64,000 nucleotides of DNA. Source: Escherichia phage FL33. The stretch is from sequence record PP400788; one strand, written 5' to 3'. Below are positions 29,305-53,250 of this stretch, in pieces (position 1 is the first letter of the stretch; each line of letters begins with the position of its first letter). A program made the position numbers and the translations under genes. The notes under the pieces were generated by a model that was given only the letters and a program-made list of their open reading frames with translations, had not been told where the DNA came from and searched no databases.

Positions 29305-29322
29305 AAAGGCCCGAAGGCCTTT
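29305..29322 (-). terminator. hairpin terminator after gene 30 operon
   Basis: ggcc-cgaa-ggcc hairpin with flanking T-run right after the 62-aa ORF stop. Confidence 0.65.
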
Positions 29323-29509
29323 AATAATCTAGTGGTAAGAGAGTACGATATATTTCAAATTTTGGACCTTTTTCATAGGCATCAAATGTTTCTGTGAATT
29401 TATTATAAGCATATGCATCTATAAATTCAAGCATGATTTGTGATACAGAAGTAGAAACATCTCCACCTTCTTTTTGAGCAATGACAATTGTTTCTAAGTA
29501 AGCTTTCAT
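29321..29509 (-). CDS. hypothetical small protein translationally coupled to ligase
   Basis: 62-aa ORF whose ATG overlaps the ligase stop by 4 nt. Confidence 0.55.
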   Translation of the reverse strand: MKAYLETIVIAQKEGGDVSTSVSQIMLEFIDAYAYNKFTETFDAYEKGPKFEIYRTLLPLDY

Positions 29510-30966
29510 AGACCAGTTACCTCATGAAAATCACCAAATACATCTTCGAATGTATTAGCTTTAGTTTTATCTTCACGTAAACGAATCGCAATCGGAAGAA
29601 ATAATTTAACGTAATCAGTACGGCCATCAGATTTTAACCAACCGTTGCATTCGCACTCTAGAATTTTTCCAATATAATAATTTTGGTTTTCCATAATGCG
29701 AGTACGGTCAAGTTCATGCGATTTTACGCCGGCTTTATCTTTTAAGCCTGAACCAGCATTTACCTTAATTTTTCCACACTCTGATTCAAGAATAAATCCA
29801 CCTGCTTTAGTAGGGTCTTTACGGTGAGGATAAATTCCTACAATTTTTAAATCAACATCAATTACTTCTTTAAATTTATAAAGATTTTTTGAACGAGCAT
29901 TTTCCCACAATCCATCGGTATTTTTGAGAATAATACCTTCAAGACCTTGGTCAATATATTTTTTATAAATTACCTTAGCTTCATCTAGGTTATTTACTAC
30001 TTGGTTTTCAATTAAAATTACTTTATCATATCCTGATGTCATTTGTTCTAGTTTAGAAAAACGTACATCATATTTTAAACGAAACGCCGGAAGACCGTAT
30101 ATTTCTACCAACGGAACATAATCCCAGACCTGAAACTTCATGCATTTGGCTTCTTTTTCTGAAATAGTTCCCTTTAAAGATTTATTGGCGATTCCATTAG
30201 AAGCAGTACGAGATTCAGCTACTTCGGCAAACTCTTTAGCTTTACTATTTTCAGGAGCATCAAAAAGAAAATCTAGGCCTTCTGGTTCCTTTTCAACTTG
30301 CTCATGGTATACCAATTCGCCATCGATTAACACGCCTTCTGGATGAATCTGGCGGGCTTCAGCAGTCATTTTGATTAACTCTTCCTTAAGAAGATCTAAT
30401 CCTAGGTATTCATTGCCAGCTCGCGATAAAAGACGAACATCATCTAATTCATCACCTCGGACTTCAGCAAAACACCGAGCTCCATCTGCTTTTAACTGCG
30501 CAAAAGCTGGAAATTTGATATTCTTACTAATGCCTTTTTCATCATAAGAACTTGCAAGCATTTGAGGTTGTTCAGGAATTAAACCTGGCCAAACTTTGTT
30601 TGCAATAGATACTGAAGCACCGCATTCAAGGTCTCGCATCATAACTCGACGTAGTACTTCAACATCATCCTTTTTACCATCGGTGATATATCCAGTTAAT
30701 TCCTCAATTGCTGCATTTCCAGTCAATTTCCGAGTAGCTAACGTAAATTCAATAAAGTCAAGCATATCGGTAATAGTCAGCATTCCAAAACTCTGGGTAG
30801 CAATACCGGGTTTAGGCCATTTCTTGATATAATACTGTAACCCACGAGAATAAGTCAGACGATATACTCGTTTAAGCAATTCATTATCTTTATTCTTTTC
30901 AAGAATTGCTTGCTTCTGCTTAGTTGATCCAATAGATGCTATTTCATTCAGAATTTTAAGAATCAT
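29506..30966 (-). CDS. 30: ATP-dependent DNA ligase gp30
   Basis: 486 aa; MILKILNEIASIGSTKQKQAILEKNKDNELLKRVYRL... and adenylation lysine motif KADGAR as T4 DNA ligase. Confidence 0.97.
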   Translation of the reverse strand: MILKILNEIASIGSTKQKQAILEKNKDNELLKRVYRLTYSRGLQYYIKKWPKPGIATQSFGMLTITDMLDFIEFTLATRKLTGNAAIEELTGYITDGKKDDVEVLRRVMMRDLECGASVSIANKVWPGLIPEQPQMLASSYDEKGISKNIKFPAFAQLKADGARCFAEVRGDELDDVRLLSRAGNEYLGLDLLKEELIKMTAEARQIHPEGVLIDGELVYHEQVEKEPEGLDFLFDAPENSKAKEFAEVAESRTASNGIANKSLKGTISEKEAKCMKFQVWDYVPLVEIYGLPAFRLKYDVRFSKLEQMTSGYDKVILIENQVVNNLDEAKVIYKKYIDQGLEGIILKNTDGLWENARSKNLYKFKEVIDVDLKIVGIYPHRKDPTKAGGFILESECGKIKVNAGSGLKDKAGVKSHELDRTRIMENQNYYIGKILECECNGWLKSDGRTDYVKLFLPIAIRLREDKTKANTFEDVFGDFHEVTGL

Positions 30967-31232
30967 TGTTCATCCTTCAGAGTTTGATTTACATCTCTAT
31001 TATAAATCAATTCATCATTAAGCTCAGGCAAAGACTTATGATATGTAGTTCTAACTTTATTTCCTTGCATCCAATGCTTGACGTAAATGAAACCTTGTTC
31101 TACACATTTTTTAAAAATTCGTTCGTCTTTTTGAGCACGGAATTCTGGATTGCATCTAAAAAATTGATTTACGTGACCGTAATCACGTGTAGTATTACCT
31201 TCATTTTCATAAATAGTATGAACAACAAACAT
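30963..31232 (-). CDS. hypothetical protein (gene 30 early cluster)
   Basis: 89-aa ORF, overlapping stop/start with neighbours. Confidence 0.6.
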   Translation of the reverse strand: MFVVHTIYENEGNTTRDYGHVNQFFRCNPEFRAQKDERIFKKCVEQGFIYVKHWMQGNKVRTTYHKSLPELNDELIYNRDVNQTLKDEQ

Positions 31233-32077
31233 TAGAATGCTCCTTGAAAAATATTATCACCACTAGTAGGTCTATTATACAAATACTCTATGCCACCAGG
31301 TTTAATATAGTTCCATGTCTGAAACGGATGTGTCTGATATGGATGATATAGATAATATGGATTATAAGGATTTAATCCAGGCGTTCTCCAGGTAGTGTTC
31401 CAAGGAAAAGAATCGTTTTTAACCATCTTCTCAATTAGATCTTTTATAGCTTTTTCACTATCAAAACTTTCTTTATTTTCCTTCGGTGAAAAAAGCTTAT
31501 TTTCTACATCATTCCATGTATAAACTCGCTGTGCAGTTTTTGGAATATTATCACGCTCTCCTCGAGCCATCCAATAAACAGGAACATTTAATATTTCACT
31601 CGCGTGGTCGCAGTGGTGAGCGAGATCGTCAATATAACAAATTACGTTATATTTCTCTTTTGCCTTTTTGAACAGCTCTTCTTTTGAAGAATCATGACCA
31701 CACATCATTACTTCTGAGAAGGCACCAGGAAAAAGAGCATTCAAATTAAATTGACGATTCAACAGAGCGTCAATAGAATCACCCAATGCTGTAACAGCTA
31801 CAAAATTATAATCTTCTTTTAATTTGTTAATTACACACAAGGCATCTTTATACGGAGACAAGTAACGAATAAAATCTGAACGATTGTATTTTTCAATTAA
31901 CTTGACGCCAAGTTCTTCGTCACAATTAAAGAGTTTACCTGGAGAAATAAATTTCTCATCTTGGATCATTTTTAAAATATGTTCTAATGGAAGATTATAT
32001 TTTTGAGCAAAATAAGGAAGACCTGATTGCCAGCTTAAACATACTCCATCAATATCAGTTAAAATAGTAGGCTTCAT
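31232..32077 (-). CDS. HAD-superfamily hydrolase-like protein
   Basis: 281 aa; N-terminal ILTDIDGVCLSW resembles HAD motif I (DxDG). Confidence 0.7.
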   Translation of the reverse strand: MKPTILTDIDGVCLSWQSGLPYFAQKYNLPLEHILKMIQDEKFISPGKLFNCDEELGVKLIEKYNRSDFIRYLSPYKDALCVINKLKEDYNFVAVTALGDSIDALLNRQFNLNALFPGAFSEVMMCGHDSSKEELFKKAKEKYNVICYIDDLAHHCDHASEILNVPVYWMARGERDNIPKTAQRVYTWNDVENKLFSPKENKESFDSEKAIKDLIEKMVKNDSFPWNTTWRTPGLNPYNPYYLYHPYQTHPFQTWNYIKPGGIEYLYNRPTSGDNIFQGAF

Positions 32078-32538
32078 AGAGAGTCTCTTAATAGGTTTAA
32101 CACATCAATAAATTCAGCTTCGGTTAGTATTGTATCATCTTTTGTTAGACCACTAGCCATGCTGTGCTTCAAAACTTTTCCTTTCGAGGCTTGTAATGCA
32201 TCACGAAAGCCCTTGTTTTGGATCGCTGCTTCAAAGTATGCATTTGTGTATAATTCTTTCCACGCTGGAGAGTATCTTGAAAACGGAACTCCAAGCCAGA
32301 AGAGGGTCCCACGGTCTTGAGCTCTAGCATAAGACCTTCCAGCTTGTTGGGCGGCAAGCCCGGATAACCCAAATATACGACGTTGTTGTTCAGCATTTTT
32401 CACCTTACATCCTTGAAGGAATCCTTCGAGACCTCCAAATTGGATACCATCCATAACGAAAGGCCATTGGGCGAAATTGCTTAATGCACATGATGGCCAT
32501 CTAAAATTGCTTCTTATTTCTAGCTCAGACATTTTCAA
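32074..32538 (-). CDS. NADAR (YbiA/DUF1768) family protein
   Basis: 154 aa; SCALSNFAQWPFVMDGIQF matches the NADAR signature (compare E. coli YbiA GDFSNFAAWPIKVDGKTW). Confidence 0.65.
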   Translation of the reverse strand: MKMSELEIRSNFRWPSCALSNFAQWPFVMDGIQFGGLEGFLQGCKVKNAEQQRRIFGLSGLAAQQAGRSYARAQDRGTLFWLGVPFSRYSPAWKELYTNAYFEAAIQNKGFRDALQASKGKVLKHSMASGLTKDDTILTEAEFIDVLNLLRDSL

Positions 32539-32731
32539 TACTTATAATTTCAACATCAGCCCAATGACCATAGCAAGGAAGACGAAATTCAACTGGCCAG
32601 TTAGGGTCCTTTTCTAATATAATAGACTTAACTTGTGGTTCTTCATGTTCATCGGTATACGGACCTTTATACGTTACTTTATATGTGACCTTAATGTACT
32701 GAATTCCAAAAATCTTATTAATTATATTCAT
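32525..32731 (-). CDS. hypothetical small protein
   Basis: 68-aa ORF in tightly overlapping early ORF chain. Confidence 0.5.
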   Translation of the reverse strand: MNIINKIFGIQYIKVTYKVTYKGPYTDEHEEPQVKSIILEKDPNWPVEFRLPCYGHWADVEIISIENV

Positions 32732-33686: not shown

Positions 33687-34019
33687 TTATTTTACTACTT
33701 TCCAGTGCTGCATGTCAAGTTTGCCAACTTTTTTCATCTTCTCAATTAAGCGTTCGGCACGTTGGCGAGCTGTAACATAATACCATTCACCTAATTCATT
33801 TTGTTCAATTTTTCCAACGATTACTGTATTCAACTCATAAATCCAACCGGTAAAGAAATTATGAACTTGAATTGTAAAGGTGAAATCTGTTCCCATACCT
33901 TCTGTTGTTTCTACTTCAATAATATCACCTTCAACTGCCATTAAGAACCACATAGTTTCATCATATTTACCATTGAAGCATTTAGTTTTAACTGTAGCGT
34001 TCAGATTAATCGTTTTCAT
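33687..34019 (-). CDS. hypothetical protein
   Basis: 110-aa ORF with early promoter and SD upstream. Confidence 0.6.
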   Translation of the reverse strand: MKTINLNATVKTKCFNGKYDETMWFLMAVEGDIIEVETTEGMGTDFTFTIQVHNFFTGWIYELNTVIVGKIEQNELGEWYYVTARQRAERLIEKMKKVGKLDMQHWKVVK

Positions 34020-34076: not shown

Positions 34077-34105
34077 AACTTTGTGCAATCTTTGGAAAAT
34101 AAAAA

Positions 34106-34125
34106 AGGACTCCCGAAGGAGTCCT
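34106..34125 (-). terminator. hairpin terminator
   Basis: aggactcc-cgaa-ggagtcct hairpin followed by T-run (minus strand). Confidence 0.7.
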
Positions 34126-34129
34126 TAAC

Positions 34130-34348
34130 TTATGCTTTCTGCTTACCAAAACGAGAAGCATCATCTCGAAGAACCGCACGTGCTCGGCGCATGATCTTCT
34201 CAACAGTTTGATTGATACGAGAGTTCGACCCACGCTTGTAACCAGCGCGTTTAGAATCACCAACTTTCTTTTCAACTGCTTTCTTTGCTTTAGCTTGTTT
34301 TGCCATTATAAATTCTCTTTTAAATGAAAATGCAGGACTTATTGGCAT
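34130..34348 (-). CDS. hypothetical small basic protein
   Basis: 72-aa ORF; Lys/Arg-rich; alternative start at Met15 (34306) gives 58 aa. Confidence 0.5.
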   Translation of the reverse strand: MPISPAFSFKREFIMAKQAKAKKAVEKKVGDSKRAGYKRGSNSRINQTVEKIMRRARAVLRDDASRFGKQKA

Positions 34349-52261: not shown

Positions 52262-52915
52262 TTAATACTTACAGGATTTCACAGTTTCAATGAAAACATT
52301 TTTAGCTTTCTGTGAATCAATATTTAAAATTTTTCTATAAGCTTTTAACTTTATAGAATAATTATTCCAGACTAAATTATCAGTCTGTTCATCATGTTTA
52401 TCAATTATATTTAAAAACGAATCAAGCAAGATAAACGTCTCAAACGAAATTATATTCGATTGAAGTAGTTTAAAAATATAACTTGATTGAACTTTTGGAT
52501 TATATTCAAAGATTTCTTTAAAAGCAGAAACTTCAACTTTTTTACTAAAATAGTAAATATTGCGAATATCTTCTTCAAATTTAAATTTAACTTGCTTTAA
52601 GCGACCGATATATTCACGATAAAATACTAATGCATCAGCGTCAGAGATATCACCAATCCAAGCATCTTGGTTAGCTACAAGATTGCTAATAAAAATTAAA
52701 GTCAATTCTTTTAATTTATACTTTTCTGATAGCTTTTGGAAAAAATACTTATCCCTTCGCTTTTGATAAGCGGCATCAGACACCCGCATGCACCAATTGT
52801 ACTTAATAACATCATATTTTCCATTCATATGTTGTTTTATCATTAAGTATAATTTATAAACTGATTTACCATCAATATATCTTTCACCACCAGCAGGCAT
52901 GCGGAGTTTAATCAT
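52262..52915 (-). CDS. 59: gp59 helicase loader
   Basis: 217-aa ORF; T4 gp59 length and position next to 32. Confidence 0.93.
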   Translation of the reverse strand: MIKLRMPAGGERYIDGKSVYKLYLMIKQHMNGKYDVIKYNWCMRVSDAAYQKRRDKYFFQKLSEKYKLKELTLIFISNLVANQDAWIGDISDADALVFYREYIGRLKQVKFKFEEDIRNIYYFSKKVEVSAFKEIFEYNPKVQSSYIFKLLQSNIISFETFILLDSFLNIIDKHDEQTDNLVWNNYSIKLKAYRKILNIDSQKAKNVFIETVKSCKY

Positions 52916-53250
52916 AGCAGAAAGTCTAACGTATTCGTTTTTTCACATCTAACAACAGAAGGGCGTAAAAGATTTTCGTCAATAGCTTCTGACTGAATTT
53001 TTTCAATTATACCCGAAGGAATAAATTTAGCAAATTGAGTTTCAGGAATAGAGTTTTCTTCCAAGAATGCTGTCGTAGCTTCAAGATAACTCATTCCAAA
53101 TTCTTCTACCATTTTTTCAATAATAAATCCATTTTCTTGGCGGTCAAGAAGCTTTGCAATTTCATCCTTTTCTTTCTTAATTGAAAGTTCTTTTTCTGAA
53201 AGCCCGGCCTCATCGACCGGGCGAATATCATTTAGAGAAAACTGTGTCAT
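52912..53250 (-). CDS. 33: gp33 late-transcription co-activator
   Basis: 112 aa from MTQFSL (ORF extends to 53259); T4 synteny. Confidence 0.85.
   Translation of the reverse strand: MTQFSLNDIRPVDEAGLSEKELSIKKEKDEIAKLLDRQENGFIIEKMVEEFGMSYLEATTAFLEENSIPETQFAKFIPSGIIEKIQSEAIDENLLRPSVVRCEKTNTLDFLL

Follow-up and report, generated by a model that had tools for sequence, protein, structure and literature searches.

What does a NADAR-family protein do in the gene 30 cluster of a T4-like phage, and does it act together with the hydrolase encoded beside it? The question is raised by a 64,000-nucleotide stretch of DNA from Escherichia phage FL33 (record PP400788; called the window in what follows), in which a first-pass annotation made from the letters alone had singled out two adjacent open reading frames (ORFs), at 32074-32538 and 31232-32077. 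It read the former as a YbiA/NADAR protein that might reverse ADP-ribosylation-based host defence or handle NAD-derived metabolites, and the latter as a HAD-type hydrolase. Both frames lie where it placed them, on the minus strand. We conclude, with a probability of about 0.9, that the smaller ORF is gene 30.3, the ortholog of T4 adfN, and that the larger, gene 30.2, encodes an independent HAD phosphomonoesterase whose conserved linkage is with the DNA ligase gene rather than with adfN. The discovery of AdfN itself is already published and is not new.

Reading frames, family and fold of gp30.3

Judging by their conservation, both ORFs are true genes rather than chance reading frames, with relatives detected by tblastn in 1510 and 1452 phage records, respectively. 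The 281-amino-acid (aa) frame (31232-32077) begins with ATG. The 154-aa frame (32074-32538) begins with TTG, which is probably a mere mechanical limit of the ORF, because the T4 annotation starts the 152-aa gene 30.3 at an ATG two codons downstream (window 32532), inside the end of gene 30.4. This ATG sits within the last codons of 30.4 (ATGTCTGA), where the same letters read AAT GTC TGA in one frame and ATG TCT GA in the other. We therefore refer to gene 30.3, or adfN, as 32074-32532 and use the 152-aa numbering.

The encoded protein, gp30.3, belongs to the gp30.3 branch of the NADAR superfamily. It is identical to T4 gp30.3 at 150 of 152 residues, the only differences being the conservative replacements A47V and M125I, and it matches the Pfam family PF08010 (Phage_30_3) over the full model with an expect value (E) of 5.4e-70 and 234 bits, against a cut-off of 36. 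The YbiA/NADAR signature that drew attention to the ORF, ALSNFAQWPFVMDG, is present at residues 16-29. Links to the wider superfamily emerge when the family is taken as a whole: 15 of 38 gp30.3 family members match the general NADAR model PF08719 (best E 1.5e-7), and a profile built from 38 homologs matches E. coli YbiA at E 0.009. A single-sequence phmmer search of the PDB gave nothing better than YbiA at E 1.3. Single-sequence results were weak for both proteins of this locus, so that profiles and structure prediction were needed.

Structure prediction, which the first-pass annotation had proposed as a check of the family, bears the assignment out. The AlphaFold model of gp30.3 has a predicted local distance difference test (pLDDT) score of 94.1 and ends in a helix at residues 138-151. 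Foldseek returned only three credible PDB matches for this model, all of them NADAR proteins with a probability of at least 0.99, namely 2b3w (YbiA, E 5.7e-5), 8bau (the Phytophthora NADAR PnNADAR with ADP-ribose) and 8bat (the Geobacter lovleyi NADAR). The catalytic residues are likewise not lost on alignment: all 38 homologs have E36 and H123, at least 90% of them have K43, and the FL33 protein keeps all three residues as well as the C-terminal helix. The histidine at position 123 marks the phage gp30.3 branch, the corresponding residue being glutamate in the YbiA branch and aspartate in the DarT1-associated branch (PMC11125620).

Two observations concern the length of proteins in this group. 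The PHROG profile that holds gp30.3 (phrog_652) has 296 positions, of which gp30.3 covers only 126-272, and judging by this profile an N-terminal extension may be present in some of its members. The other observation is that the construct described as 'T4 phage NADAR (gp30.3)' in PMC11125620 (Toxins 2024) is given as residues 1-208, which is inconsistent with a T4 protein of 152 aa.

AdfN as an anti-DarT factor

T4 gp30.3 was renamed AdfN, for anti-DarT factor NADAR, by Johannesman et al. (Nat Commun 2025; PMC11825919), who described it as a DNA ADP-ribosylglycohydrolase that is both necessary and sufficient against DarTG1. In that study, T4 and T2 lacking adfN could not plaque on DarTG1 hosts, RB69 was rescued by ectopic AdfN, and purified AdfN stripped ADP-ribose from DarT1-modified DNA. 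AdfN activity was reduced by E36A, by K43A and by truncation of the C-terminus, the inactive RB69 allele had lost the C-terminal helix, and the thymine-specific DarTG2 was not countered (PMC11825919). Independent in vitro work found that de-ADP-ribosylation by T4 gp30.3 is guanine-specific (PMC11125620), and in HIDEN-SEQ, a transposon screen of T4, insertions in 30.3 were lost on a DarTG1 host (log2 fold change (log2FC) -7.25, adjusted p 0). The reversal of host ADP-ribosylation defence that had been suggested for the FL33 ORF, together with the proposed deletion experiment on DarT-bearing hosts, is thus already on record for a 99%-identical protein (PMC11825919; HIDEN-SEQ).

These data suggest the following course of events in an FL33 infection. 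DarT1 released from the host DarTG1 system would ADP-ribosylate guanines in the phage DNA and thereby block replication. AdfN, made early in infection, would then hydrolyse the guanine-ADP-ribose bond and restore replicable DNA, with catalysis by E36, K43 and the branch-specific H123 and with a requirement for the C-terminal helix. The thymine-ADP-ribose produced by DarT2 would not be acted on. By analogy with T4, we infer that FL33 resists DarTG1 through gene 30.3.

Comparison with characterized NADARs supports placing the FL33 protein next to T4 AdfN. The two are orthologs of equal length, encoded between 30.4 and 30.2, with E36, K43, H123 and the C-terminal helix all kept; they differ in the replacements at positions 47 and 125 and in that the FL33 copy is known here from its sequence and model. 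DarG1 and the DarT1-associated NADAR antitoxins, such as that of Geobacter lovleyi (8bat), have the same fold and also hydrolyse guanine-linked ADP-ribose on DNA. Unlike them, the phage protein has no N-terminal extension, carries histidine instead of aspartate in the last strand and is an orphan, being encoded without a partner toxin. In uninfected cells, moreover, DarG1 cannot be replaced by the T4 protein.

Several points weigh against our conclusion. FL33 gp30.3 itself does not match the general NADAR model PF08719 at E values up to 0.1, so that the link to the superfamily depends on fold, transitive matches and the literature. For FL33 the case consists of orthology, fold and intact residues, and activity and phenotype come from the 99%-identical T4 protein. 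In uninfected cells, AdfN from T4 fails to detoxify DarT1, and its rescue of T5 and Bas25 is only weak (PMC11825919), which therefore points to a T-even-specific component in vivo. Finally, gp30.2, the second subject of the conclusion, has no known phenotype.

Gene 30.4 as a possible helper

A candidate for such a component is encoded immediately upstream of adfN. Gene 30.4 (32525-32731, minus strand; 68 aa; phrog_2042) includes the start of 30.3 in its last codons, and it abuts 30.3 in every Tequatrovirus- or Mosigvirus-type locus examined. In the HIDEN-SEQ table for the DarTG1 host, in which we compared the genes from 26 to cd.4, 30.4 was depleted (log2FC -1.79, adjusted p 0.014) and was the only gene besides 30.3 with an adjusted p below 0.05. 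It is conceivable, if unlikely, that 30.4 encodes the T-even-specific factor on which full AdfN activity depends. A polar or translational-coupling effect of 30.4 insertions on 30.3 is more likely, and polarity is the simplest explanation of the depletion because 30.4 contains the adfN start codon. Since the authors of HIDEN-SEQ regard polar effects as uncommon in their data, a helper role for 30.4 may nevertheless remain. By tblastn, which was used to follow 30.4 beside relocated copies of 30.3, 30.4 was detected in close relatives only, at 39-47% identity where 30.3 is 86% identical.

gp30.2, a predicted HAD phosphatase

The product of gene 30.2 is 96% identical to its T4 counterpart, with a 3-residue insertion in the tail, and falls into phrog_420 (E 7.9e-93), a group whose function is unassigned there. 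Single-sequence searches of Pfam, NCBIfam and the PDB (phmmer) gave no match. The reading of this ORF as a HAD-type protein, which had been drawn from a DIDGV motif at its start (residues 8-12), is nevertheless sound, since all four HAD motifs are present: among 36 homologs, D8, D10, G11 and K132 are invariant, and T96, D150 and D151 are at least 90% conserved. The predicted HAD phosphatase core, with the motifs D8-x-D10-G-V, T96, K132 and D150-D151, extends from residue 1 to about 197 (31487-32077, minus strand). In the model, whose pLDDT is above 90 for residues 1-190, a Rossmann-like HAD core is joined by a helical C1 cap, which spans roughly residues 16-86 and is inserted between motifs I and II. 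Foldseek returned 105 matches for this model at E of 0.001 or less; the best 50 listed are all HAD-fold proteins, and the top match is mouse cytosolic 5'(3')-deoxyribonucleotidase (cdN).

The same enzyme appears at the sequence level, as a gp30.2 family profile searched against the PDB had a single match, 2jao (E 0.026), in which the invariant W16 is aligned to the phenylalanine of cdN DGVLADF. The NT5C family of cdN and mdN enzymes (PF06941; 2jao, 2i7d, 1mh9) resembles gp30.2 in combining a HAD core with a C1 cap and in having an aromatic residue after the DxDGV of motif I. Among the 36 homologs, 10 match PF00702 and 5 match PF06941 weakly (best E 1.2e-4), and gp30.2 itself has no match to PF06941 at E up to 0.1. 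From its motifs and model we file gp30.2 as a HAD phosphatase that is probably nucleotidase-like, and not as a member of NT5C. In the HAD superfamily, a DxD motif I together with a DD motif IV indicates a phosphatase and not a dehalogenase. The DxD motif I and the C1 cap therefore make a small phosphorylated metabolite the likeliest target of gp30.2, a predicted Mg-dependent HAD phosphomonoesterase, with a (deoxy)nucleoside monophosphate as the most probable candidate.

A literature search on gp30.2 function found no relevant study, and a few GenBank records call the protein a HAD hydrolase, a phosphatase or a 5'-nucleotidase. Gene 30.2 is dispensable in the laboratory. A role in minimal medium was considered and set aside, as insertions had no effect in M9 (log2FC -0.10; HIDEN-SEQ).

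The remainder of gp30.2, from about residue 198 to 281 (31232-31486, minus strand), is a variable tail that is predicted to be disordered except for one helix, with a pLDDT below 50 at residues 242-281. It holds the peptide GGIEYLYNRPT (31265-31294, minus strand; residues ~262-271). The corresponding motif, G-[TG]-G-[IVL]-E-Y-[LWY]-x-x-[QR]-P-T, is shared by 17 of 58 long-tailed homologs, in which its distance from the C-terminus is always 16-20 residues; by its sequence it resembles a docking motif. It bears only a loose resemblance to TLDFLL, which, followed by a stop codon, ends an ORF at window 52915-52932 (minus strand). This ORF is a putative gp33 gene, as the ending matches the C-terminus of T4 gp33 and the location fits the T4 map. 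The C-terminus of T4 gp33 binds the sliding clamp. By this analogy, the tail peptide could tether gp30.2 to the replication or ligase machinery, a weaker lead than the helper role of 30.4.

Linkage of gene 30.2 to the ligase gene and to adfN

In each of 59 viral loci, the gene for the gp30.2 homolog sits directly upstream of that for DNA ligase, with at most 30.1 in between, and a gp30.3 homolog is found near it in about half of these 59. Conversely, of 80 viral-contig loci that carry a gp30.3 homolog, only 19, all of them from T4 relatives, have a gp30.2-type HAD within 8 kb. The conserved linkage is therefore that of 30.2 to the ligase gene, which is far tighter than that to gp30.3. The genes between 30.2 and gene 31 vary in presence among the viral loci.

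Either an inherited gene order or a functional tie may account for the linkage of 30.2 to the ligase gene. If the tie is functional, gp30.2 could remove 3'-phosphates from DNA ends and so heal nicks for the ligase, in the manner of the phosphatase domain, also of HAD type, in T4 polynucleotide kinase. We consider this quite improbable. The modelled helical C1 cap argues against it, as a C1 cap typically limits HAD enzymes to small substrates, and the better structural matches of gp30.2 are small-molecule HADs and nucleotidases. T4-type phages moreover have a Pnk of their own, genes 30.1 and 30.2 are non-essential, in contrast to the essential ligase gene, and the gene order can be plain inheritance among T4-like genomes.

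A functional pairing of the NADAR with the HAD protein has fared worse. In such a two-step module, the HAD enzyme would process the ADP-ribose released by gp30.3 or would itself be the T-even factor that AdfN from T4 is reported to need, and the arrangement of 30.3 and 30.2, co-oriented with a 4-nucleotide (nt) overlap, is of the kind it would predict. Insertions in 30.2 were, however, neutral on the DarTG1 host (71 sites, log2FC -0.12, p 0.61), as against -7.25 for 30.3 (HIDEN-SEQ). Nor is the adjacency conserved: beyond the low count of nearby pairs given above, the HAD gene is missing from the gp30.3 locus in Krischvirus and in Aeromonas, Vibrio, Sinorhizobium and Ralstonia phages, and several T4-like genomes of about 170 kb have the two genes some 50-60 kb apart. 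We regard the module as highly doubtful, and we reject gp30.2 as a cofactor or second step of AdfN in view of its neutrality on the DarTG1 host together with the loss of adjacency beyond close T4 relatives.

Other roles for gp30.3

The preferred reading of gp30.3 as an AdfN ortholog also has to be set against roles away from host defence. Gp30.3 could be a YbiA-like housekeeping N-glycosidase acting on riboflavin intermediates or on free NAD-derived metabolites instead of DNA. E. coli YbiA (2b3w) is its best PDB match both by structure and by single sequence, the two proteins have in common an SNF...W/HP and EGF/EHYFQ core, and YbiA-type NADARs are tied to riboflavin metabolism (PMC11125620). 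YbiA, however, has glutamate at the position of H123, has a housekeeping role (riboflavin metabolism, swarming) and gives no protection from DarT1 in vivo (PMC11125620). The gp30.3 branch, with its histidine, clusters nearest to the DarT1-associated NADARs, and insertions in 30.3 did not alter fitness in minimal medium (log2FC 0.12; HIDEN-SEQ). Since the T4 protein cleaves guanine-ADP-ribose on DNA in vitro, a housekeeping function is scarcely credible, and the handling of NAD-derived metabolites that had been offered as a second option for this ORF finds no support.

Equally hard to credit is the notion that gp30.3 reverses or edits marks set by ADP-ribosyltransferases of the phage itself (Alt, ModA, ModB) instead of those of host defence. 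The Alt gene lies about 3 kb away in the same cluster, but arginine residues of proteins are the main targets of Alt, ModA and ModB, and the tested NADARs, T4 gp30.3 among them, took guanosine-linked ADP-ribose off DNA and left the thymidine-linked form in place. In addition, 30.3 is not required on hosts that lack DarTG1, and some phage loci have a gp30.3 homolog but no Alt in the vicinity.

The surrounding locus

Over 1.9 kb around both ORFs, the sequence agrees with that of Escherichia phage FL34 at every position (100% identity) and with several hundred Tequatrovirus records at 95-99%, and by these matches the window is Tequatrovirus. The gene 30 cluster setting proposed for the two ORFs is correct, as the minus-strand order is that of T4: alt, alt.1, 30, 30.1, 30.2, 30.3, 30.4 and 30.5 onward. 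According to the T4 annotation, gene 30 (29506-30966) encodes the ATP-dependent DNA ligase, and gene 30.1 (30963-31232; 89 aa), between 30.2 and the ligase gene, encodes a DUF3045 protein (PF11243, E 4.7e-62). A 302-aa gp30.2 homolog from a metagenome (P0015) has a DUF3045 match as well, and it represents either a 30.2-30.1 fusion or gene-calling read-through.

From 30.4 to alt.1 (window 29321-32731, minus strand), the genes form an unbroken chain in which every stop codon overlaps the following start. The overlaps are 8 nt for 30.4/30.3, 4 nt for 30.3/30.2, where the 30.3 stop overlaps the 30.2 ATG (ATGA), 1 base for 30.2/30.1, and 4 nt each for 30.1/30 and 30/alt.1. On account of these stop/start overlaps, we regard the block as a reading-frame chain that is probably translationally coupled.

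The out-of-frame internal ORF annotated in T4 as 30.3' (75 aa; 32169-32396, minus strand) is open in FL33. It is poorly conserved: relatives lose the ATG or gain a stop codon, and the frame diverges faster than 30.3. Conservation does not support a genuine overlapping gene, and 30.3' is probably not a conserved gene.

A scan of 29-36 kb for promoters and terminators was uninformative, with counts not above those in shuffled sequence. It contained a strong terminator-like hairpin (9-bp stem and T-run) at 34105-34126 (minus strand), between 30.8 and a 72-aa ORF (34130-34348) that is probably 30.9, and an 11/12 match to a sigma-70-like promoter at 33689-33718 (minus strand), just upstream of 30.7. 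These two elements may mark the start of the transcription unit that contains adfN, at scan counts no higher than in shuffled sequence.

Implications

A reading based on motifs alone foresaw, for this ORF, a counter-defence role for which the experimental proof came no earlier than 2024-2025. The FL33 gene can be annotated with confidence, and the presence of an intact adfN predicts that the phage would resist DarTG1-type defence, and not DarTG2.

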